DNA from: Escherichia phage ETEC-TG
Reading direction: 5' to 3' (one strand)
DNA: 64,000 nt
Sequence record: OR786310.1
Positions 1,426 to 52,869 of the stretch are shown in pieces; the first letter of the stretch is position 1, and the number at the start of each line of letters is the position of its first letter. Below the pieces are notes generated by a model. It did no database searches and was not told the DNA's origin. It worked only from the letters and a program-made list of their open reading frames with translations. The position numbers and the translations under genes were made by a program.

Positions 1426-1732
1426 CTTTAACCACCTCCAATTGCCTTTCGAGTTTGACTTTGTTTGAGAACTGATAATGACACAACTTACATTGCATGT
1501 CAACAATCTGATCGTGATTTAACCCTACAATTTTAACTTCCTTTGCACCATCCCACTCCAAATACTCAAATCCATCCAAATGATTACTCTTGTCCAACAG
1601 GAATGCTATCTGCTGCCATTCAATCTGAATGTCATTTAAATGATATGCTGCACAGAAGATATCTTCATAGTAAAAGACGATCATTGTCATTGCTTCGTCC
1701 AGCACAACTACCTCTTGTCTTGTAAATCTCAT
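1409..1732 (-). CDS. hypothetical early protein
   Basis: TAGGAGG RBS immediately upstream of start at 1732. Confidence 0.45.
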   Translation of the reverse strand: MRFTRQEVVVLDEAMTMIVFYYEDIFCAAYHLNDIQIEWQQIAFLLDKSNHLDGFEYLEWDGAKEVKIVGLNHDQIVDMQCKLCHYQFSNKVKLERQLEVVKDDSTN

Positions 1733-1907
1733 TCTAGCCTCCTAAACGCGTCTCTGACGCACTTTTTATATATAAGATGATAAATCACCTTACCTAGTAA
1801 GTAAACTTGCTCTACGAGCCTCTTATGAAGCTTGTGTTATAGGCTATACTATTGCTACCTGTTTAAGCAAGGTTTTTGCACACAGAAAATAATTTTTAAT
1901 AAAACTC

Positions 1908-1937
1908 TTGACTTTTGTGTTCGAAGTATGCTACCCT
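1908..1937 (+). promoter_or_regulatory. sigma70-like promoter candidate
   Basis: TTGACT - 18 nt - TACCCT, same architecture as other promoters in the window. Confidence 0.3.
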
Positions 1938-1984
1938 AGAAATCTATTAACGAGCGCAGCGAGTTAAGGTTTTAAGGTTGTTGA

Positions 1985-2190
1985 TGTAGTACTCTGTACT
2001 CAAGTACTGTACTCCGTACTAGATTAATAATTATTAAATATTAATAATAAATAATTATTAGATCTAACAAACAGGTACAGTGTATCAGAACTGGTACGTA
2101 CAGATCAACTTCTATCAATTAAAAATAAAATAATAAATTATTATAAATAATACTTGATCTATAGATCGGTATGAAGTACAGTACGGAACA
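1985..2190. promoter_or_regulatory. divergent control region with GTACT repeats and AT-rich/GATC palindromes (candidate ori or regulatory hub)
   Basis: 5 GTACT copies at 1989-2020, more GTAC motifs at 2073-2186, perfect palindromes ttaataattattaa and gatctatagatc; lies between leftward and rightward gene blocks. Confidence 0.4.
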
Positions 2191-2214
2191 TCTTAACAAG
2201 AATGGAGGTGTGCA

Positions 2215-2400
2215 ATGATTAGTGAGAATCCGTGCAAATGGCATCATGTGCCTATTAAAGATTGTATGTCTTGTAATCCACGTTCTATTTATAACATTGC
2301 ATCTTATGATGATGACAATGTGTTAGACGATGATGAAGGCTGGGAGGATTTAGATTGGACTGGTTATGAAACCAAAAAGGATAAAATTATTCCTGGTTGA
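2215..2400 (+). CDS. hypothetical protein, Cys-containing, acidic C-terminal half
   Basis: GGAGGTG RBS before ATG. Confidence 0.45.
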   Translation: MISENPCKWHHVPIKDCMSCNPRSIYNIASYDDDNVLDDDEGWEDLDWTGYETKKDKIIPG

Positions 2401-2437
2401 CTTAAGATATCCTTCGTGCTAAACTAGAAGTGAGGAG

Positions 2438-2689
2438 ATGCCGATCACTCCCCATTTGGGGTTCGAAGGATATATGCAAAATAGCTTTTATTTTAGGTGC
2501 CGTGCTTGTAATAGGCATTTGACAAACCACTCCAGACGTGATAAAAATGGAGTCATCAAGGAATCAGACCTCTGTTCTATTTGCACAGGTTTGGCTTTTG
2601 ATGATAGTCCCGAAAGGGTTTATCAGCATCAATGTATAACAGACGTTCTCGTGTCAAACTTGGTAGAGGACGAACAACTAACAGATTAG
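2438..2689 (+). CDS. hypothetical Cys-rich (zinc-ribbon-like) protein
   Basis: GTGAGGAG RBS; CRACNRH and CSIC cysteine pairs. Confidence 0.45.
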   Translation: MPITPHLGFEGYMQNSFYFRCRACNRHLTNHSRRDKNGVIKESDLCSICTGLAFDDSPERVYQHQCITDVLVSNLVEDEQLTD

Positions 2690-2697
2690 GAGGAACA

Positions 2698-2946
2698 ATG
2701 TCTCTATTAGAAAAACACGTGTTTGAAGATGGTAACGGCAATGCAGTTTTTCTTTTCCATCCAGAAAAATACACATCTGAAAACAATGGTACAACTTCTA
2801 TTGTAATCACTAAAGATGTTAAAGTTATTGATTTCTTGGCTCTGATGCGAGAGATGGATCTTGAAATTAATACTTTTAACGCAGAAGCTTTGGTTGTTGC
2901 TCTTCTGGAAAAGAAAGATAGTGAAGAAGTAGCAGAATATGCTTAA
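2698..2946 (+). CDS. hypothetical protein (start moved to ATG at 2698)
   Basis: AGGAGGAACA RBS directly before ATG 2698; the track start at 2632 lacks an RBS. Confidence 0.45.
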   Translation: MSLLEKHVFEDGNGNAVFLFHPEKYTSENNGTTSIVITKDVKVIDFLALMREMDLEINTFNAEALVVALLEKKDSEEVAEYA

Positions 2947-2953
2947 ATAACTA

Positions 2954-2983
2954 TTGACAAACGTATCCTTCATATGTTAGGAT
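2954..2983 (+). promoter_or_regulatory. sigma70-like extended -10 promoter
   Basis: TTGACA - 18 nt - TGtTAGGAT; recurring motif aactaTTGACAa...TATGTTA. Confidence 0.5.
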
Positions 2984-3192
2984 ACGTTCATCAAGTGTGG
3001 TAACAGGGTCGTTGACTTTTGTTAAGAGGGGCTTGCACTGCGGTAGTGTTAGAGACTACTTCTTCAGAGGTTAGCTACCAAAGAGGAAAAGGAATAGTCT
3101 CGGCTCAAGAACTTTTACGCTGAAAGTTGGGCTTGGTCTTAGAGAATGTAGCGGTTCTCTACAATCGTCAGCGTCTCTGTTACCACATTTAC

Positions 3193-3264
3193 GGCCCTGT
3201 AGCTCAATGGGAGAGCTGTCGGCTCATAACCGATAGGTAGCTGGATCGAAACCAGCCAGGGCCA
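3193..3264 (+). tRNA. tRNA-Met or Ile2 (anticodon CAT)
   Basis: Hand-folded cloverleaf: acceptor GGCCCTG/CAGGGCC, anticodon loop CT-CAT-AA, T-loop ATCGAAA, encoded CCA. Confidence 0.7.
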
Positions 3265-4884: not shown

Positions 4885-4958
4885 GTACCTTTAGAATGTT
4901 ATGACGGAATTTAGCTCAGTTTGGTAGAGTGTACGCTTTGGGAGCGTATTGTCGCAGG
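4885..4958 (+). tRNA. tRNA-Pro (anticodon TGG)
   Basis: Acceptor CGGAATT/AATTCCG, anticodon stem TACGC/GCGTA with loop TT-TGG-GA, T-arm GCAGG-TTCGAAT-CCTGC, CCA follows. Confidence 0.7.
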
Positions 4959-5357: not shown

Positions 5358-5375
5358 CTATCTATTGAATAAAAC

Positions 5376-5404
5376 TTGACTTATTATTTTTTATATGTTA
5401 AGAT
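5376..5404 (+). promoter_or_regulatory. sigma70-like extended -10 promoter
   Basis: TTGACT - 17 nt - TGtTAAGAT, followed by TAGGAGGA RBS of the 5426 gene. Confidence 0.5.
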
Positions 5405-18911: not shown

Positions 18912-20900
18912 TTGTTAGAAATTAACGCCTCCAAAATTAGTAACGTGGTTACGTTTAAGGTGGACAAGAACAGTCTCAAGGAAGCAAAAGATGCCGTGTT
19001 GAGTGTTCAGAAGTTTGCAAATAAAATGCAACCCACTATGAACATGACCAAGTTTAGACAACAAATGAAAGAGATTGAGCGTGAACTTAAGAAAGCTCAA
19101 ACTCAAAGTCAAAAACCTATGCGAGCACCTACTCCCGCTGGAGCGGGTGCTCCTGTAGGTGGATCTGGCAGACCAAGAACTCCTAAAACCCCGCAAGGAA
19201 GAGAAGAAGAAAAAGCTCGTAAAGCGGCTGAACGCGAAGCTAAAGCAGCAGCACGTAGGGAAGACTTAGGTAATCTTCGTTTGCAAAACTTTAACTACCG
19301 AGCAAAAGCATTTAGTAAAGCCAGCCCTGGCGCTATGCAAGAAGCTAGAGACGTTATGGGTAAAGCTGTAGAGCAATACAAAAAGGGTGAAATAACTCTT
19401 CAACGTATGAACCAAGCTCTTGCTCACCAGTTAGATGCCTTACGCAGATCTCATCGTGAAAAGAATGCTGAAATAGAAGACGAGGTTCGCGGTCGTCGCC
19501 GTATTCGTAGAGAGCTAGAAGCAGAAGCTAAAATGCGTATACGTATGCGAAATCGTGAACTTAGAGATATAGAACGCAACCGTAAGCGTGAATTAGCTCA
19601 ACAAAAACGTGATCGTGATCGTCGATATGGACAATTAAAAGAAGGTGCAGCAGGTCTTAATCCACGTATGATTGCATCCTCTTTGATAGGTGCTGGGCTG
19701 TTTGCAGGTGGTTCTGTAGTTGGTAACACGTTGATGAATACTAACGAAAGAATTAAACTTGTAAGTCGTGGCGCTGAAAACGTTCAGACAAACGCCAACG
19801 CTATTTTGGCAATGACAGCTTGGGGTGAACAGAACGGTGTAGACTCTGCAAATATTATTAAATCAATAGATAATATTAAAGACGTTCGTGAACGTCTTGG
19901 TAATACAGTTTTAGCCTCAAAATGGAATGAGAAAGAAGGGAAGTGGAAAGGCGGTGATAATGGCATAAATGACATTATGAACTTGTTTGGATGGAATCCA
20001 GAACAGCTTAAACCTTTACAGAACGACCCTTTAGCTTTTATTCAGGCTACTGTTAATGAAGGTGAGCGTCGAGGTATGAACTCTGCTCAAATCGGGCGAC
20101 TTCTTGAAAACCTTGGTGACGACCTTATGCACTACCAGCGCATGTTTAGTAAAAACGGCGAAGGGTATAATGAGGTATTGAAAATGCTTCAAAGAACAGG
20201 TGCAACATTAACTCAAGAACAAATAGATGCTTCTAAAGAGTTTACTCGTTTTGCTGCAACAGTTCAGCTTGTAGGTCAAGGTATGCAGAACCATTTCTTA
20301 GAGGGTTTTGTGAAAGCCTTACCTAAAGATGATTCTTGGTTGGATAACGTTAAAGTGCTAGATCAGTTTGCCAAAGATTTAGGTGAAGAACTTGGTAAAA
20401 CAACAGTTCAACTTGGTGGTTTTGCTAAAGAATTGGGAGATGGTTTCGGATCTTTTACCAATTGGCTTAAAGAAACATTCCCAGATACCTTCGGAGACAA
20501 CACAGATCCTAATAAATCTATGGTACAAAAAGCATACGAGGCAACGCAAAGTGGAGACAGTAACCCTGTAGCAGATTGGTTGTACAATTTAACAGGTATT
20601 GATACACAAGATATTGGTCGTATGTGGAGAGGAGAACAAACAAGGACACGTGCTTTTGGATTTGGTAATCCTCTTGAAGATTTACGTGAATCAGCCTATA
20701 CACCTAACGTAAGTTTGGCTCGTAATCAACCTGTTGTTGAGAATACGGTAGCAATACCAAGTGATCTTATCAAAGTTACGATCAGCCCTTCTTCCGAGTT
20801 TGGAAATATTCTTGATGCAAGAATTCAAAATAGCGGAAATAGCATTTTCCAACGTTTGTCTCTTTCAACTCTAAGTGGACAATCTAACACTGGTGGTTAA
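18912..20900 (+). CDS. tail tape measure protein
   Basis: 662 aa, Arg/Lys/Glu-rich helical N-half, follows chaperone pair, terminator downstream. Confidence 0.65.
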   Translation: MLEINASKISNVVTFKVDKNSLKEAKDAVLSVQKFANKMQPTMNMTKFRQQMKEIERELKKAQTQSQKPMRAPTPAGAGAPVGGSGRPRTPKTPQGREEEKARKAAEREAKAAARREDLGNLRLQNFNYRAKAFSKASPGAMQEARDVMGKAVEQYKKGEITLQRMNQALAHQLDALRRSHREKNAEIEDEVRGRRRIRRELEAEAKMRIRMRNRELRDIERNRKRELAQQKRDRDRRYGQLKEGAAGLNPRMIASSLIGAGLFAGGSVVGNTLMNTNERIKLVSRGAENVQTNANAILAMTAWGEQNGVDSANIIKSIDNIKDVRERLGNTVLASKWNEKEGKWKGGDNGINDIMNLFGWNPEQLKPLQNDPLAFIQATVNEGERRGMNSAQIGRLLENLGDDLMHYQRMFSKNGEGYNEVLKMLQRTGATLTQEQIDASKEFTRFAATVQLVGQGMQNHFLEGFVKALPKDDSWLDNVKVLDQFAKDLGEELGKTTVQLGGFAKELGDGFGSFTNWLKETFPDTFGDNTDPNKSMVQKAYEATQSGDSNPVADWLYNLTGIDTQDIGRMWRGEQTRTRAFGFGNPLEDLRESAYTPNVSLARNQPVVENTVAIPSDLIKVTISPSSEFGNILDARIQNSGNSIFQRLSLSTLSGQSNTGG

Positions 20901-20906
20901 TAAAAT

Positions 20907-20932
20907 ACCTCGCTTCGGCGGGGTTTTTTCGT
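20907..20932 (+). terminator. Rho-independent terminator (UUCG tetraloop)
   Basis: CCTCGC-ttcg-GCGGGG followed by TTTTTTCG. Confidence 0.65.
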
Positions 20933-20938
20933 TTCCCT

Positions 20939-20968
20939 TGACACGAAGTTTCTATATGTGTTACAATA
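20939..20968 (+). promoter_or_regulatory. sigma70-like extended -10 promoter for the baseplate operon
   Basis: TTGACA - 18 nt - TGtTACAAT. Confidence 0.5.
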
Positions 20969-21026
20969 ATCAATATGGGAAGATCTTGCATCTTCCTTTT
21001 GGCATTATCATTACTACGAGGTTATC

Positions 21027-21728
21027 ATGGCAGCAATGACTCCACAACAGTCGGTGAGAGCCGTCTATAAGGCAGAACAGGAAATCAACTCTACCGAGAA
21101 TAAAAATACCTCGGCATCTACTGTAAAGGGTGATAATGGTTTCTGCATTTTAGCAAGTGTTTATAATAGTTCAAGTGATCAATACATTCAAAACTTTAAA
21201 GCAATTACTTTCGATTCAGTCCCTGAAATAGGTGTAACTCGTGAGGCAGATGTTACAAGTTTTCCAGTAGAATCAGGATCGGATGTAAGCGACCACGTTC
21301 AAATAAAAAACAACAGATTTAAACTTTCAGGTATAATTACCGAAACACCAATTCGGCTTATGCGAGATCAATTATACAGTGCAGGTGTAAATGGGGCAAG
21401 GATTTCTCAAGCAATAGAATATCTAGATCAAATATTTGAGTCAAGACAACCAATAGTTCTTTTGACAGAACACAGAACTTTTGAAAATGTTATTCTCAAA
21501 GGTTATTCATATGATTATAAATCTGAATTTGCTATGCAATTTGATTTAGAGTTTGAACAAATCCGTCTCGTTTCTAAGGCCACTACTAACGCTATTGCTG
21601 TAAAAACAGCACCAAATAAGTCAACTGGTGGTGATGTGAAAGGTCAAGTTGCTTCTAATGGTCCTAAGTCAGATATTACAGTAAGAACTGCTGAAGCTAC
21701 TAATACCCCAACAAACAATGGAGGTTAA
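21027..21728 (+). CDS. distal tail / baseplate protein (putative)
   Basis: Position downstream of tape measure. Confidence 0.35.
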   Translation: MAAMTPQQSVRAVYKAEQEINSTENKNTSASTVKGDNGFCILASVYNSSSDQYIQNFKAITFDSVPEIGVTREADVTSFPVESGSDVSDHVQIKNNRFKLSGIITETPIRLMRDQLYSAGVNGARISQAIEYLDQIFESRQPIVLLTEHRTFENVILKGYSYDYKSEFAMQFDLEFEQIRLVSKATTNAIAVKTAPNKSTGGDVKGQVASNGPKSDITVRTAEATNTPTNNGG

Positions 21729-47165: not shown

Positions 47166-49763
47166 CTAGTGACAGGACGCCCAGGAATTACCCACATCGT
47201 ATCCGGCAGTAAGCTGAACGTTAAGATTGTAAAATTCTCCAGCCTTAGTAACAGCTAAAGCAGCAAGTTCACCTGCCCGACTATAGGCTGTAAACCATCC
47301 ACCTTTGGGAGATTCATGAATGTTAGCCCAAATTTGCCCTGTCTCTTTTTCCTTATTATGCTTCCATTCTTCGACTTTAGCAAGGCATTCTTTATCAATT
47401 TTCTTTTGTTCTTCAGGATCGTCTACTTTCTTCCAACCTAATGATTCGGGTGAAAACCATTTGAATTCTACAAGGTTACGAGAAACTTCAAGCTGGGCTT
47501 CATCGTGGTATGCAATCATTTGTTGCACGAAGTCTTTATTCTTCCAGTCATCTTTAAAGAAGTCAACACTTAGCCCTTCTTCTTCGATCATGTCGTCATA
47601 AATAACCATTGCACGTTTAGCACAAATAACCCCACCACTTTGGAACAGAGAGTTAAGAATCGCGTGAGCAGAACGAGTAGGAACCTTACGACCGTCAATA
47701 CCCAAAACATATTGTTTACCAGTCTTAACCCAGAAATCGTTTAAACGTTCTTTAAGACGCGCCAATGGAAATGCAGCTTCCCAGAAAGCATCGAACACCA
47801 ATTGACCTGTAAACTTGTCGCTACCAATTGTTTTAGCAACCTTGTCGGCTTGTGCACCATAAGTAATACCATACTTAACAGATTTAGCAGGACTACGTTC
47901 AAATTTACGTCCAATAGTTTCAGTGATACGTTTTGCCATCATTGTGTGAACATCGTTAGGTTTCTCTAACAACAGAGCGTTACAATATTCGTGTGGCTCC
48001 GGCTCGTACCGCCAACAGTAGTGTGATTCAATTTTTGCTTCCAAAGAGTCGAAGTCGTAGCCAATCTGGAAGTACTTAGGAACCTCTACACCAAACAAGT
48101 TACGCATCTCCCATCCAAACAAAGATGTGACACGAGGAATATTAGCTACAGACCTATGCTTCATACGAGAGGTTGCAGCATCACATGTAGCTGCTGGGGT
48201 AGGAATACGACCATCCGCCCTTACTGCGGCTAAGAAACCTTTATCATATTCTTGATCTTCCTCATCTTCTTCCCAATCAGCACCACCGCCTAAAATAGAA
48301 TTCCTACGATGCTTATACGTTAAGTATTCTACAATCTGTGTAGCATAAGGGAATTTCTCACCTAAAGCTTGCAGGTTAGGACAGATTTCTTTTTCCTGAC
48401 CTTTGGTAAAACATGGGTTAGTCAATACTTTAAGACCGCGACCCTTACCTTTTGCTATACGCTCTTGAATCTTCCTCTCCAAGGTTTCCGGTGTGCACTC
48501 CAGATGATCACAACGATCCTGACAAAAATTAGAAGACAGAGTTTGCTCAACGTAAGCTCGAATACCTTTCTGAAGTTCTTCCTCGCTCTTTTTAATCTTG
48601 GTGCCAGATTTAAGAGTCAAGTCTTTATCTTTATATTCAGACGGTACCCAACCTAATCCTACAAGCCAGTTTTTAATATGGGTAGTATCGTTCAATGTTG
48701 CAGGGATATTAGGATCACACAAAGGCTCATCTGCTGCAACTGGTAGTTTCCACTCTTTCCCCAACATAACTAACCACCAATCGCCATTCCTCTCTTCCAA
48801 ATGACCATCATGTTTCTTAGCAAAATTGATCATATGGTTAGTTGGCTCTAAGTTCTTTTTAATTTGCAACTTAGGTGGAATAAAAGCCTTAAGATAACCT
48901 TTTGTTGCTGGTTTAGGTGGCAAAATAGGCTCAACGAGTAAACGAAGACGCTCCATTTCTGCATCCAAAAAAGCAAGGTTCTCTTCTGCTTGCTTCATGT
49001 TAAAAGCAAACCCACGGTGTTCCTGGCGTGTAATAATGTCTGCTACACGTTGTTCAAGTTCAAATGGACCTTCCCATTTATCATAATCACCCCATTCTTC
49101 CATAAGGTAATTATATACGCTCGTATTGGCTTTGTTGTCATAGATACAGTAATAAAGCATATCAGCAGCAAAAGTCTTAAATCGATCTTCTTCTGGAACC
49201 TCTTTACGAAAATCTATTTTTACATCACCCCCTGCCTTTCGAGAAAGTGCTGCCAAGCTATGTCCTGATTTGCCCTCAATCTTTCGATCTGGGTTTAACA
49301 CTTTACTCAAAATCAAGGAGTCAATAAGTTTTACCTTATTTTTACCCCACGTATTATATTTAACACTGTAATCTAAACCATAAAACAGTTTTGTAGCCAA
49401 CCAGTCATAGTTGATACCGTTGTGAGCCACAGCCATTTCAACCAGATATTCAGGCTTATCTTTAAAATAACCTTCATGATTAATAAAGTCTGGGAAATCT
49501 TTTAGTTGAAAATGTGTGTAATCTTGCGCCACATACTCTTTAAGAACATATGTGTATTTACCATCTGACTCTTCATAAGGACGCCCATCAAAGATGTATT
49601 TAGGGCCATCGTGGAAAGCTACTATTTCTCCTGTTTCATGGTTCTCTAAGACAATACAGTGCATTTGAAATGTGTCTTTGAGACGATAAGGACTAGCTAA
49701 ATAATCGATAGTGTCATTATTCAACAATCCGTTTGCTTCAATATCCCATGTAAACTTACTCAC
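47166..49763 (-). CDS. DNA polymerase, family A, with 3'-5' exonuclease domain
   Basis: Exo I motif FTWDIEANGL; motif A DFDSLEAKIE; motif B RSPAKSVKYGITYG; motif C IAYHDEAQ. Confidence 0.85.
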   Translation of the reverse strand: MSKFTWDIEANGLLNNDTIDYLASPYRLKDTFQMHCIVLENHETGEIVAFHDGPKYIFDGRPYEESDGKYTYVLKEYVAQDYTHFQLKDFPDFINHEGYFKDKPEYLVEMAVAHNGINYDWLATKLFYGLDYSVKYNTWGKNKVKLIDSLILSKVLNPDRKIEGKSGHSLAALSRKAGGDVKIDFRKEVPEEDRFKTFAADMLYYCIYDNKANTSVYNYLMEEWGDYDKWEGPFELEQRVADIITRQEHRGFAFNMKQAEENLAFLDAEMERLRLLVEPILPPKPATKGYLKAFIPPKLQIKKNLEPTNHMINFAKKHDGHLEERNGDWWLVMLGKEWKLPVAADEPLCDPNIPATLNDTTHIKNWLVGLGWVPSEYKDKDLTLKSGTKIKKSEEELQKGIRAYVEQTLSSNFCQDRCDHLECTPETLERKIQERIAKGKGRGLKVLTNPCFTKGQEKEICPNLQALGEKFPYATQIVEYLTYKHRRNSILGGGADWEEDEEDQEYDKGFLAAVRADGRIPTPAATCDAATSRMKHRSVANIPRVTSLFGWEMRNLFGVEVPKYFQIGYDFDSLEAKIESHYCWRYEPEPHEYCNALLLEKPNDVHTMMAKRITETIGRKFERSPAKSVKYGITYGAQADKVAKTIGSDKFTGQLVFDAFWEAAFPLARLKERLNDFWVKTGKQYVLGIDGRKVPTRSAHAILNSLFQSGGVICAKRAMVIYDDMIEEEGLSVDFFKDDWKNKDFVQQMIAYHDEAQLEVSRNLVEFKWFSPESLGWKKVDDPEEQKKIDKECLAKVEEWKHNKEKETGQIWANIHESPKGGWFTAYSRAGELAALAVTKAGEFYNLNVQLTAGYDVGNSWASCH

Positions 49764-50557
49764 TATTCCTCCTTTCTAATGTTCTCCAGAACCCACTGAA
49801 GTTCTTTTAAACTTAAACTTCTTACTCCCGCAGTTTTACTAGCTTCAGTTTTAAGTAACGGGTAAGCCTCAATGATACGCGTTTTAAGATCAGAAGTCAA
49901 GGCTTTTAAAAAATAGGTAGATGCTTCAGATAAAGAATCTTCTTCTGATAACACTTTACCTGCACTTGCTCCCGCTCTCCTAACGGCTATATCGTAGTCT
50001 TTACTGTTACCTAATACGAATAGTCGATTCTCTCCTAAAACAACGGGAGAACGCTTCTTGTTGCGTTTAATCCATATCTGGAATACACAAGGAACATCCC
50101 AAGGTTCTCCATGAAGAATAAAAGATCCTTTTGGACATTCTTCTTCGTAAAGAAGATGCATGTGGGGATTTAGTTTGTGTGCAAAAAAGATTTTTTGAAA
50201 TGTGCGAGGCAAGATAAAACAAATACCACCTTCGTTATCCAACATTTCAGCACAATGGTTAAAGAACTTAATGGCAAGACTGGCATTTTTTCCAAACGGA
50301 GGATTACCGACAAAAGCAGTTACACTACCAACAGACTCAACAGATTGAGCTAAAAAATCTGCCTCAATACAATCTTCAAACTTAGGGTCAATATCAAAAG
50401 AAGTTATGTTTTTAAAACAAGAAGAGAAAGCTCCTTCTCCCGCAGATGGTTCTACGTAGTTAGCTTCCTCTCCAAAAATTTCTTTGATCTTATCACATAA
50501 GAACCCCGCATAAGCGGGGTTAGTGTAATATTGATCAAGTATGTTCAACTTGCTCAA
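49763..50557 (-). CDS. N6-adenine (amino-type) DNA methyltransferase, orphan
   Basis: SAM-binding motif VEPSAGEGAF and catalytic motif VGNPPFGK; no adjacent restriction endonuclease. Confidence 0.75.
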   Translation of the reverse strand: MSKLNILDQYYTNPAYAGFLCDKIKEIFGEEANYVEPSAGEGAFSSCFKNITSFDIDPKFEDCIEADFLAQSVESVGSVTAFVGNPPFGKNASLAIKFFNHCAEMLDNEGGICFILPRTFQKIFFAHKLNPHMHLLYEEECPKGSFILHGEPWDVPCVFQIWIKRNKKRSPVVLGENRLFVLGNSKDYDIAVRRAGASAGKVLSEEDSLSEASTYFLKALTSDLKTRIIEAYPLLKTEASKTAGVRSLSLKELQWVLENIRKEE

Positions 50558-51076: not shown

Positions 51077-51092
51077 AAGGGCCGAAGCCCTT
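51077..51092 (-). other. intergenic stem-loop (GGGC-UUCG-GCCC on the transcript)
   Basis: Near copy of the 47131 hairpin, directly after the primase-helicase stop. Confidence 0.45.
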
Positions 51093-52869
51093 AATAGTTG
51101 CTATCCGTAGGCAAATTAGCAGGATTGTTGAAATACTGCTCTTTGTCATGCAGAGTTGCAGTTCTAATGTCATAGTAAAACTGCCCTGCCGGACCAGTTT
51201 CCGAGAACTCACGGTTTTTTAGGATAAAGCAATGAGTCGTATTGCGTTCTACAGGGTCTTCAGCGGCTTTATCTCGTTCCAAAGCCAAGGTAATACCAGC
51301 GCCTTTAGCCAAGAAACTACTACCCATTGCATCGTCCTCTGTTAAGTGTTCATTGCCACCATTAGCCGATTTCTTAACGTGTGAGATGACGATAATAGTT
51401 ATAGCGTACTCTTTCATGATGCGCTTCAACCATGTTGCTAACTCTTCCTGGGCTTGAACATCCATACCAGAAAGCAAATCAGAATAAGGGTCGATAACAA
51501 GAATTGTTACTCCAAAATAGATGATCATCTCCAAAACTTTTTCTTTGATAGACTCCACATCTGCTCCACGATCATCACACACATAAAAACGTGGTGATCC
51601 ATCTTCTCTTTCGTAAAAATCTAGGATTTTTTCTTTATTCTCTTCCAAGATTTGAAATTTCTCTTCCGGTGTTTTCCTGTGTAGAGGAATATGCAGGAAC
51701 GAGGACAACAGGTTACGAGAATATTTCTTATAAGTTGCTTCCAAGGACAGAATACCCAAGGTATGTTCTGGGTGAGCAACAATAATATGTTTGGTGATCT
51801 CGTTCACCATCAAAGTTTTACCGATACTGGTCTTTGCCAGGATCACTGTAATCTCTTCCTCTACTAAACCACCACCCAGCATATTTGCAGCAACACGCAT
51901 AAAAGGAGGCAAGGTAATCATCTTGGATTCCAAGCATTCTAATGCAGCTTCATACAAGACATTAGAAGCATAAACACCTGCTGGGGTGTATAGACGAGCA
52001 CTCCAAAAAGCTTTTACGAAATCTTTTGCACGACCTTCTTCCAGATACTGATTGGCATCCTTAAGATCCATCTGCATACGGTAGACTTTGTTACGGGGCA
52101 GCACCTTAACAATATTTTCAAATGCCTCATTACCTGCTTTGTCATTATCCATGCAAACAATAATCTTCTTAAATTTTTCAAAGAAAGGATATTGTGCCTG
52201 AACTTGTTTATACATACTGGTTTCACCAGTTGTGCCACTAACTACTGCTGGAAGTTCATATTTGTTGTCCAAGTTTTCAGACAACATTTGATAAGCTGCC
52301 AGAGCATCGTGTTCACCACCTGTAATTACCACAGTATGAGAACGGTCTGCAAAACGAATTTGTCCAAAAAGATCTACATCTTTACCTACTTGACCAATAG
52401 GTTTACTGAAATCTTTAGGATGAATACGACGCTTAAAACCAACCAATTCTTTACCGATGGTAGTCGGATATAAACAACTTTCTACTACCATCTGATCCCC
52501 TTCCTGACGGTATTCATAACGAACACCATAGAAAGATGAAACTTTTTCTTTAATGCCTCGATAACCACGTGGGTTGGTTGATGTTTCTTGAACAATTTTA
52601 CGATGAATCTGTTTATTAAATTCCGAACCCACAATCTCCTCCTCTTCTTCTAAAACTTCACCATTTTCTCGTAACCATTCTACGCTAGGAATAGTGTATT
52701 CACACGCAAAGCACTTAGCACCTTTATGCTCTCCATTAGAATCTAATCCATAAACCATCAGGTTATTACGAGAGCGATCCTTGCCATTTTTCATGCAGCG
52801 CGGACAACCTGTATGCCCTTCCTTGCTAAGATCAACATCAAATCCATATTTAGTTATAATGTGCGACAC
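51091..52869 (-). CDS. primase-helicase (zinc-binding primase fused to DnaB-like helicase)
   Basis: N-terminal CPRCMKNG ... CFACEY zinc motif; Walker A ILAKTSIGKT; Walker B-like VIDPYSD. Confidence 0.75.
   Translation of the reverse strand: MSHIITKYGFDVDLSKEGHTGCPRCMKNGKDRSRNNLMVYGLDSNGEHKGAKCFACEYTIPSVEWLRENGEVLEEEEEIVGSEFNKQIHRKIVQETSTNPRGYRGIKEKVSSFYGVRYEYRQEGDQMVVESCLYPTTIGKELVGFKRRIHPKDFSKPIGQVGKDVDLFGQIRFADRSHTVVITGGEHDALAAYQMLSENLDNKYELPAVVSGTTGETSMYKQVQAQYPFFEKFKKIIVCMDNDKAGNEAFENIVKVLPRNKVYRMQMDLKDANQYLEEGRAKDFVKAFWSARLYTPAGVYASNVLYEAALECLESKMITLPPFMRVAANMLGGGLVEEEITVILAKTSIGKTLMVNEITKHIIVAHPEHTLGILSLEATYKKYSRNLLSSFLHIPLHRKTPEEKFQILEENKEKILDFYEREDGSPRFYVCDDRGADVESIKEKVLEMIIYFGVTILVIDPYSDLLSGMDVQAQEELATWLKRIMKEYAITIIVISHVKKSANGGNEHLTEDDAMGSSFLAKGAGITLALERDKAAEDPVERNTTHCFILKNREFSETGPAGQFYYDIRTATLHDKEQYFNNPANLPTDSNY

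Follow-up and report, generated by a model that had tools for sequence, protein, structure and literature searches.

We analysed a 64,000-nt window of the genome of Escherichia phage ETEC-TG (record OR786310.1), in which a cluster of GTAC motifs at positions 1985-2190 had been proposed, in an earlier model-generated annotation made from the letters alone (hereafter the sequence-only reading), to be an iteron-like origin of replication or an operator array. The GTAC element sits in a 482-nt non-coding gap between leftward and rightward genes. Rightward, a gene for a 61-residue protein is followed by two more small genes, then ten tRNA genes and then morphogenesis genes. The segment 1700-2450 matches 64 phage records at 95-99% identity, colinear over at least 80% of the query, and the matching records are phAPEC8-like myoviruses of ~150 kb (Phapecoctavirus, Stephanstirmvirinae). 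None of these phage records annotates a function for the region, and three of them place a 55-nt repeat_region in one of its two AT blocks. The gap and its borders contain the following features, given by position in the window.

1732, minus strand: ATG of the leftward gene to the left of the gap.
1777-1805, minus strand: P_L, candidate leftward promoter (TTTACT, 17 nt, TATCAT), matching 9/12 positions in a consensus scan and serving the gene with its ATG at 1732.
1908-1937, plus strand: P_R, rightward promoter, with a -35 of TTGACT (1908-1913), an 18-nt spacer, an extended -10 of TGcTACCCT (1929-1937) and a predicted start at ~1944.
1944-1969, plus strand: leader box CTATTAACGAGCGCAGCGAGTTAAGG, identical in the phiWec sister clade and in one IMG/VR contig.
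1964-1979, plus strand: TTAAGGTT tandem repeat (repeat family D13), whose copy number differs among isolates.
1989-2020, plus strand: left GTACT array, five copies (GTACTctGTACTcaaGTACTGTACTccGTACT), two of which extend to CTGTAC.
2023-2060, no strand: AT block 1, a 38-nt pure A/T run that is a 36-bp near-palindrome (inverted repeat I3) and is followed by AGATCT at 2060-2065.
2072-2106, plus strand: central GTAC set, with GGTACAGT at 2074-2081, the palindrome GTACGTAC at 2094-2101 and GATC at 2103-2106.
2117-2152, no strand: AT block 2, a 36-nt pure A/T run that ends 1 nt before the -35 of P2, in the position of an upstream promoter (UP) element.
2154-2182, plus strand: P2, candidate proximal promoter, with a -35 of TTGATC (2154-2159), a 17-nt spacer and a -10 of TACAGT (2177-2182).
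2169-2184, minus strand: right GTAC set GTATgaaGTACaGTAC, which repeats the 3' part of the left array in inverted orientation.
2204-2400, plus strand: ribosome-binding site GGAGG (2204-2208) and first rightward gene (ATG at 2215), encoding a cysteine-rich protein of 61 residues (phrog_26411, function unknown).

Genome-wide comparisons used a composite of ~155 kb made of the window plus positions 1-50 kb and 110-151 kb of the phage Schickermooser, with a 2.7-kb gap left out. In this composite genome the GTAC cluster is real, unique and beyond chance. All five GTACT copies named in the sequence-only reading are present (starts at 1989, 1996, 2004, 2009 and 2016, with start-to-start distances of 7, 8, 5 and 7 nt), as are the additional GTAC motifs that it had noted to their right, at 2075, 2094, 2098, 2176 and 2181. 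Ten GTAC therefore fall within 206 nt (1989-2184), where 0.22 are expected (Poisson P ~6e-14). The motif is among the most avoided 4-bp palindromes of the genome, with 68 copies in the window against 229 expected from base composition (observed/expected ratio (O/E) 0.30). There is no second non-coding GTAC cluster in the composite, and the sole other stretch of ~200 nt with six GTAC lies inside the dTDP-glucose dehydratase gene.

The motifs are also related to each other beyond their four-base core. Five of the 11 copies of the longer core GTACAG(T/A) in the window are found here: two on the bottom strand in the left array, two on the top strand in the centre and one on the top strand at the right. 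A 10-mer in the right set, AGTACAGTAC, is the exact reverse complement of GTACTGTACT (2004-2013), 170 nt away, and the inverted repeat formed by the right set and the left array (I5) extends over 16 nt with 88% complementarity. Overall dyad symmetry is weak (score 45 versus 22 ± 8 in block shuffles). Folding of the region as single-stranded DNA is strong (z = -4.0), and as RNA it gives z = -2.5 relative to shuffles; the minimum-free-energy fold of the P_R transcript pairs 2004-2019 with 2169-2184 in a long-range stem.

Where the cluster lies relative to promoters bears directly on its interpretation. The sequence-only reading had placed it in a divergent early region, between leftward and rightward genes. 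It does lie between such genes, but not between the divergent promoters (P_L, 1805-1777; P_R, 1908-1937), because the whole array is 3' of P_R, within the ~270-nt stretch that precedes the ATG at 2215. P_L is a weak call, given that the promoter scan overall was not enriched over shuffles. P_R is invariant in the 14 Phapecoctavirus genomes of our within-clade alignment and 85% conserved in the sister clade, phiWec (phiWec179 and phiWec188); P_R and the leader box together are the sole part of the gap that blastn aligns with that clade. P_R is moreover one of three paralogous promoters in the genome that share the same -35, the same -10 and the leader core CGAGCG(nn)AGCGAGT. The paralogues lie at ~15,108 and ~128,649 of Schickermooser, both on the minus strand, and the family has the form TTGACTTTT...TATG(C/G)TACCCT; in all three the leader core occurs within ~20 nt and is followed by a long leader rich in TAGAT and GATC. 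The three promoters may represent a small regulon that shares a downstream operator or an RNA 5' element. The P_R leader also contains a minimal start-stop open reading frame (ATG-TAG, 1984-1989), 7 nt upstream of which lies the Shine-Dalgarno-like AAGG of the variable TTAAGGTT repeat.

The second rightward promoter candidate, P2, has a predicted start at ~2189, 26 nt before the ATG, and is spaced normally from the ribosome-binding site and the ATG. Its position corresponds in the alignment to that of a promoter of phiWec179 and phiWec188 (TTGACT, TTTAGATC, TAGAGT; an 18-nt spacer with TG) whose flanks are otherwise unalignable and which is a much better promoter match. In both clades TAGATC opens the spacer and an AT-rich block lies directly 5'. 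Because P2 aligns with a phiWec promoter that has an AT block directly upstream, AT block 2 is taken to occupy the UP-element position of P2. The perfect 12-bp GATC palindrome to which the sequence-only reading had drawn attention, GATCTATAGATC, is exact at 2156-2167 and turns out to be part of the P2 -35 and spacer; six of the 14 relatives in the alignment have it broken (five as GATCTATAGATT, one as GATCTATAAATC). AT block 2 is followed by TTGATCTATAGATC and then by the inverted copy of the left array, with the right GTAC pair overlapping the P2 -10. There are four GATC within 107 nt (P ~0.001, uncorrected for multiple windows). In either clade this gap is a peak of GATC density; over the first 50 kb of phiWec179 the maximum, five in 150 nt, falls in the homologous gap.

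The core between the repeats is indeed very AT-rich, as had been noted, with 39/40 A+T in each block. No 50-nt windows of the composite are less stable than these two blocks (block 1, -45.1 kcal/mol; block 2, -46.3 kcal/mol; next, -49.4 kcal/mol), and the 150-nt minimum is also here (-155.5 versus -165.1 kcal/mol for the next; mean -193, standard deviation 8). This minimum is conserved: both the 50-nt and the 150-nt window of lowest stability in the first 50 kb of phiWec179 fall in the homologous gap, whose AT block abuts P2. Further AT-rich window peaks fall at promoter-like sites, for example at ~5368-5376. The 14-bp palindrome TTAATAATTATTAA highlighted in AT block 1 is exact at 2024-2037 and unremarkable for a pure A/T run, where we estimate ~0.5 chance cases per region. 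A direct repeat, D1, joins blocks 1 and 2 at a spacing of 103 nt. Block 2 also contains a sequence identical to the consensus for T4 late promoters, TATAAATA (2142-2149), for which ~0.3 chance matches are expected in pure A/T by our estimate; a related T4-late-type motif lies upstream of late genes according to the authors of the rV5 genome study (PMC3606486).

Comparison among relatives separated the constant parts of the gap from the variable ones. The phiWec clade retains P_R, the leader box, the GATC cluster, the AT-rich minimum and P2; its homologous gap has no GTAC and carries a repeat of its own, GATCT(A/T)AAAGAC, in two copies. In phi92, a Klebsiella relative and Seunavirus, gene order differs and we found neither an equivalent divergent gap nor a GTAC array. 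Conservation of the repeats in relatives, which the sequence-only reading had made a test of its proposal, holds in part: the left array is kept in 12 of the 14 aligned genomes and is absent from the phiWec clade, phi92 and the Klebsiella relative. Even within the clade, dw-ec lacks two GTACT units and has a 13-nt deletion between repeats, phAPEC8 has GCACT in place of one GTACT, 12-nt duplications are seen in AT block 2, and BI-EHEC (OL505078) has all GTAC cores of the left array mutated. What is conserved, judged from these alignments, is the promoters, the AT-richness and the GATC sites, and the GTAC core is mutable.

In BI-EHEC the losses extend beyond the array. Genome-wide, 23 of its 48 alignable GTAC are lost, against a background divergence of 1.6%, mostly through G-to-A or C-to-T changes. 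In the array each loss is a single transition with the other bases kept, so that palindromic and inverted relationships are preserved. Of 15 changes in coding GTAC, nine are synonymous and ten fall in third codon positions; this bias looks like real evolution, although it is not proof, and we set aside a sequencing artefact as their source. One BI-EHEC change falls in a tRNA-Pro gene (window position 4931). Avoidance of GTAC is itself clade-specific, with an O/E of 0.24-0.31 in the phAPEC8 clade versus 0.80 in phiWec179, which points to a strong, recent and lineage-specific pressure against the motif. Two methyltransferase genes, one at window positions 49763-50557 (minus strand; annotated as N6-adenine, beside the polymerase gene) and one at 20767-21450 of Schickermooser (minus strand; Dcm-like), are candidates whose specificities would bear on the GATC and GTAC patterns; neither has a match in the copy of Pfam that was searched. 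We rejected the Dcm-like enzyme as the clade-specific cause of GTAC loss because it occurs in more than 1,400 phage records with no sign of clade specificity; six of these, which were not listed one by one, have 90-95% identity and may come from the phiWec group.

We tentatively favor, with somewhat less than even confidence, the reading that the element is a control region in which tandem promoters are combined with an AT-rich block upstream and with GTAC(T)/GTACAG boxes as accessory sites. Such a region would control the rightward unit (small genes, the tRNA cluster, then morphogenesis genes) through two tandem host-type promoters. Transcription from P_R would traverse the GTACT array and the two AT blocks. 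P2 would be the proximal promoter, with AT block 2 as its UP-like region, the GATC palindrome as its -35 and spacer, and its -10 (TACAGT) within the right GTAC pair. AT block 1 and the central GTACAGT would be a degenerate duplicate of this P2 module, ~101-103 nt upstream, with a spacer too short to work, and the left array holds the same GTACAG core inverted. The 103-nt D1 repeat and the repeated GTACAG(T/A) core fit the duplication of a promoter module, and the exact 10-bp inverted copy at the P2 -10 argues for more than slippage. The boxes may be accessory sites for a sequence-specific factor, or for RNA polymerase via -10-like elements, and would modulate P2 firing and P_R read-through; GATC in or near P2 could confer sensitivity to Dam methylation. 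What is observed is the motifs and their uniqueness, where they lie relative to the promoters, and that P_R, P2 and the stability minimum are conserved; promoter activity, UP function, protein binding and the methylation effect we infer.

Several observations weigh against this reading. P2 is weak, with eight of 12 matches to the sigma-70 consensus and no TG motif, and it fell under the 9/12 threshold of the promoter scan and so went unreported there. Relative to P_R the left array occupies +45 to +77, where an operator would be unusual. The nieznany record lacks 2081-2149 through a 70-nt deletion that takes the central GTAC set and most of AT block 2, and the EP57 record lacks 2166-2204 through a 39-nt deletion that takes the P2 -10 and the right GTAC pair; neither deleted part is therefore essential, provided that the assemblies are correct. 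BI-EHEC has changed nine of ten GTAC here versus 16 of 38 elsewhere (Fisher P 0.011), and because array sites were lost more readily than others, the GTAC core is weakly constrained. In the literature that we searched there was no mapping of promoters, transcripts, binding or origins for Phapecoctavirus. Finally, we identified no DNA-binding protein among the ten flanking gene products, none of which has a Pfam match above threshold and whose PHROGs are all of unknown function. The sequence-only reading is thus supported in part: of its two options, the operator array, as a regulatory role, is the best fit to the anatomy, with the cluster between P_R and P2 and a GTAC pair over the P2 -10.

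The element is previously undescribed, yet control regions of this class are familiar in phages. An A+T-rich UP element combined with tandem sigma-70 promoters is known from P1/P2 of the Escherichia coli rrn operons and from the strong early promoters of phage T5. As in those systems, two serial promoters precede an operon rich in stable RNA, an AT block lies 5' of the proximal -35, the -35 and -10 hexamers are of host type, and one promoter has an extended -10. Unlike those systems, the P2 hexamers are weak, the A/T runs (36-38 nt, 39/40 A+T) exceed a canonical UP element in length and purity, inverted GTAC boxes flank the module, which is duplicated, and the starts are predicted from sequence. 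Multi-site operators offer a second comparison, among them gal OE/OI with its looping, the metboxes of MetJ and the heptads of omega/ParR. Short boxes at 7-8 nt, one set of which overlaps a -10, resemble these operators and tandem TrpR GNACT sites, and inverted sets separated by ~85-170 bp that include flexible AT-rich DNA resemble looping operators; the spacing here, unlike theirs, is irregular, and the TrpR geometry (GNACT, 8 nt, AGTNC) is absent.

An origin of replication activated by transcription, of the type of the T7 primary origin or of T4 oriF/oriG, is the main rival; it is possible though unlikely, and it is compatible with a control region rather than exclusive of it. The T7 primary origin consists of the phi1.1A/B promoters and a 61-bp AT-rich region, and T4 oriF/oriG of a middle promoter and a downstream unwinding element. 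Here, host RNA polymerase starting from P_R (and P2) would open the weakest DNA or leave an RNA primer or R-loop, the opened DNA would load a T7-gp4-like primase-helicase and a family A polymerase, and the GTAC dyads would be accessory or initiator-binding sites. The conserved P_R does point into AT block 1, ~80 nt past its expected start; the least stable 50-nt and 150-nt windows lie here and in the phiWec179 gap alike; the GTAC cluster is genome-unique, with dyad symmetry and strong single-stranded DNA folding; and the phage encodes a T7-like replisome (Toprim_2 and DnaB_C primase-helicase, 51091-52869, minus strand; DNA_pol_A, 47166-49763, minus strand). As in T7 and T4, the DNA that unwinds most easily lies in the path of a promoter, and the model needs no initiator; we recognised no dedicated one. 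Unlike in T7 and T4, the promoter is of the host sigma-70 type, and the two AT blocks and the short-repeat array are without counterpart. GATC clusters beside AT-rich DNA are also reminiscent of oriC and P1 oriR. Against an origin, the element is partly deleted or mutated in natural isolates, the array is lineage-specific, the replication genes are ~45 kb distant, the AT block at P2 is more simply a promoter upstream region, and there is a second repeat-rich, AT-rich non-coding region at ~137 kb. The location between oppositely oriented genes, which the sequence-only reading had used as an argument for an origin, does not help: at each of the four strand-switch points GC skew changes along with gene orientation, and coding-sense skew at four-fold sites, taken per segment (+0.131 in the left arm, +0.002 in the right arm), misfits a replication pivot, so we rejected skew as evidence. 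Authors working on rV5 likewise found skew unfit for this purpose, and they sought the origin of rV5-like phages without placing it (PMC3606486).

The iteron-like form of the origin proposal, taken in its canonical sense, did not survive. Its 5-nt cores (at most CTGTACT is shared) recur at irregular spacings of 5-8 nt rather than as regular repeats of 17-22 bp, the sister clade lacks the repeats, and dw-ec, phAPEC8 and BI-EHEC have fewer or mutated copies. No initiator gene was found among the ten flanking genes, whose products match only families of unknown function. Iteron origins are known from lambda ori, P1 oriR and plasmids, and origins with short repeats from the GAGGC pentamers of simian virus 40 (SV40) and the octamers of P4. 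Like them, the element has direct and inverted short repeats beside an AT-rich tract, with A+T-rich DNA suited to unwinding adjacent to the repeats (2023-2060 and 2117-2152) and GATC nearby as in P1 oriR and oriC; unlike iterons, its repeats are mutable in isolates and not kept in the sister clade. A related proposal, to which we assign the lowest probability of all and regard as a long shot, is that the GTAC cluster is the cis-site of a lineage-specific GTAC-recognising activity (an origin-opening, nicking or other initiator-type protein). Such an activity, or selection associated with it, would account for the purging of GTAC in the phAPEC8 clade only, as phiWec lacks the cluster and has an O/E of 0.80; if this were true, the cis-site would be the first sequence-defined start of replication or processing in the rV5/phAPEC8 group.

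That the array has no specific function, and is a by-product of slippage or local duplication in a repeat-prone, AT-rich promoter spacer in which only the promoters and perhaps the AT-richness matter, we consider rather improbable. The locus is clearly a hotspot for insertions and deletions, as the TTAAGGTT copy number, the 13-nt deletion of dw-ec, the 12-nt duplications in block 2 and the 70-nt and 39-nt deletions attest; the array is absent from the sister clade and BI-EHEC has removed nine of ten GTAC cores; GTACTNN arrays in many unrelated bacteria and metagenome contigs suggest a generic way of arising; and identity among the ~64 genomes with the array is as high as 95-99%, so that its conservation carries little information. 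Yet ten non-coding GTAC persist here although the lineage has purged ~70% of its GTAC sites, the spacers differ between units, which speaks against a recent pure tandem expansion, an exact inverted 10-mer 170 nt away cannot come from slippage, and BI-EHEC altered each site by one transition while retaining the palindromic and inverted relationships. Were the region merely a promoter region with slippage-born repeats, it would be ordinary. Highly unlikely, in our judgment, is an RNA element in which pairing between the left array and the right GTAC set in the P_R transcript closes a long AT-rich loop, giving a structured 5' leader that would control stability, processing or translation of the first gene. 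The long-range stem in the minimum-free-energy fold (z = -2.5) recurs in the consensus fold of seven relatives, with one BI-EHEC pair changed from C-G to U-A. This pair change, however, belongs to the genome-wide removal of GTAC and is not driven by structure, and the covariation term is about zero, with one compensatory pair and several broken ones. Moreover, a transcript started at P2 would lack the left arm, EP57 lacks the right arm, and the predicted fold of the element is better for DNA than for RNA. An Rfam covariance-model search of 1700-3200 on both strands gave no match at E <= 1.

Several more specific candidates were rejected. GTACT is a half-site of TrpR, whose GNACT half-sites are inverted with an 8-bp spacer (PMC9413887); GNACT-N8-AGTNC does not occur in 1985-2190 at up to one mismatch, and elsewhere in the window there are 19 matches versus 23 expected. 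A LexA box candidate, CTGTACTCAAGTACTG (1994-2009), has one mismatch in its ACAG half and a non-AT center as judged by eye, and was set aside. A packaging or terminal site (pac, cos or terminal repeat) is contradicted by the position of the region 54.7 kb from the left end, with the genome ends elsewhere: the Schickermooser record is bounded by a terminal repeat of 328 bp (PMC6563267), and its beginning recurs at its end with a 1-nt offset. The nieznany record starts near the region, which reflects a record boundary plus the 70-nt deletion. An invertible promoter switch is at odds with the same orientation in the 64 colinear records, all 14 aligned genomes and two metagenome contigs, and a mobile element resembling a miniature inverted-repeat transposable element (MITE) with the confinement of the sequence to this locus in Phapecoctavirus.

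Phapecoctaviruses have been isolated repeatedly as candidates for phage therapy and food safety, and the element offers a ~200-bp target that combines two promoter candidates, the weakest duplex of the genome and a unique motif cluster, with natural variants that lack single parts (dw-ec, nieznany, EP57 and BI-EHEC). Genome-wide avoidance of GTAC set against its local accumulation also allows a test of whether a motif's retention in the face of restriction-type selection is the sign of a functional site.

Two further regions of the Schickermooser genome, outside the window, were noticed. At 136,884-137,215 (MK373788), within a 575-nt non-coding gap, lies the second least stable DNA of the genome, with four palindromic 19-21-nt repeats, AAATGAGAATGATTCTCAT(TT), at an exact spacing of 29 nt, together with 138-nt direct repeats. 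By blastn the repeat part also turns up in phi92-like phages and in T5-like phages, where it lies at ~9.5-10 kb, inside the terminal repeats or at their end, and this element could be injection-stop-like or origin-like. At ~138-147 kb, at least nine near-identical units each have a promoter (TTGACA...TG(A/G)TAAGAT) followed by GTATCACRTAGGGCGG, a loop and CCGCC, which form a hairpin ahead of a small early gene.

Arrays of GTACTNN heptads are also found in intergenic DNA elsewhere, with an occasional 5-nt GTACTGTACT step and up to ~20 copies. A pattern search for four units, for which we estimate ~4 chance matches, retrieved such arrays from 10 unrelated contigs of bacterial metagenome-assembled genomes, two IMG/VR contigs and one metagenome contig, and the arrays matched are far longer than the pattern. 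In the metagenome contig (Ga0213858_10002255, 7240-8316), GTACTNN arrays alternate with 21-nt TTGGGAGATACAAGGT repeats in tandem units of 479 nt.

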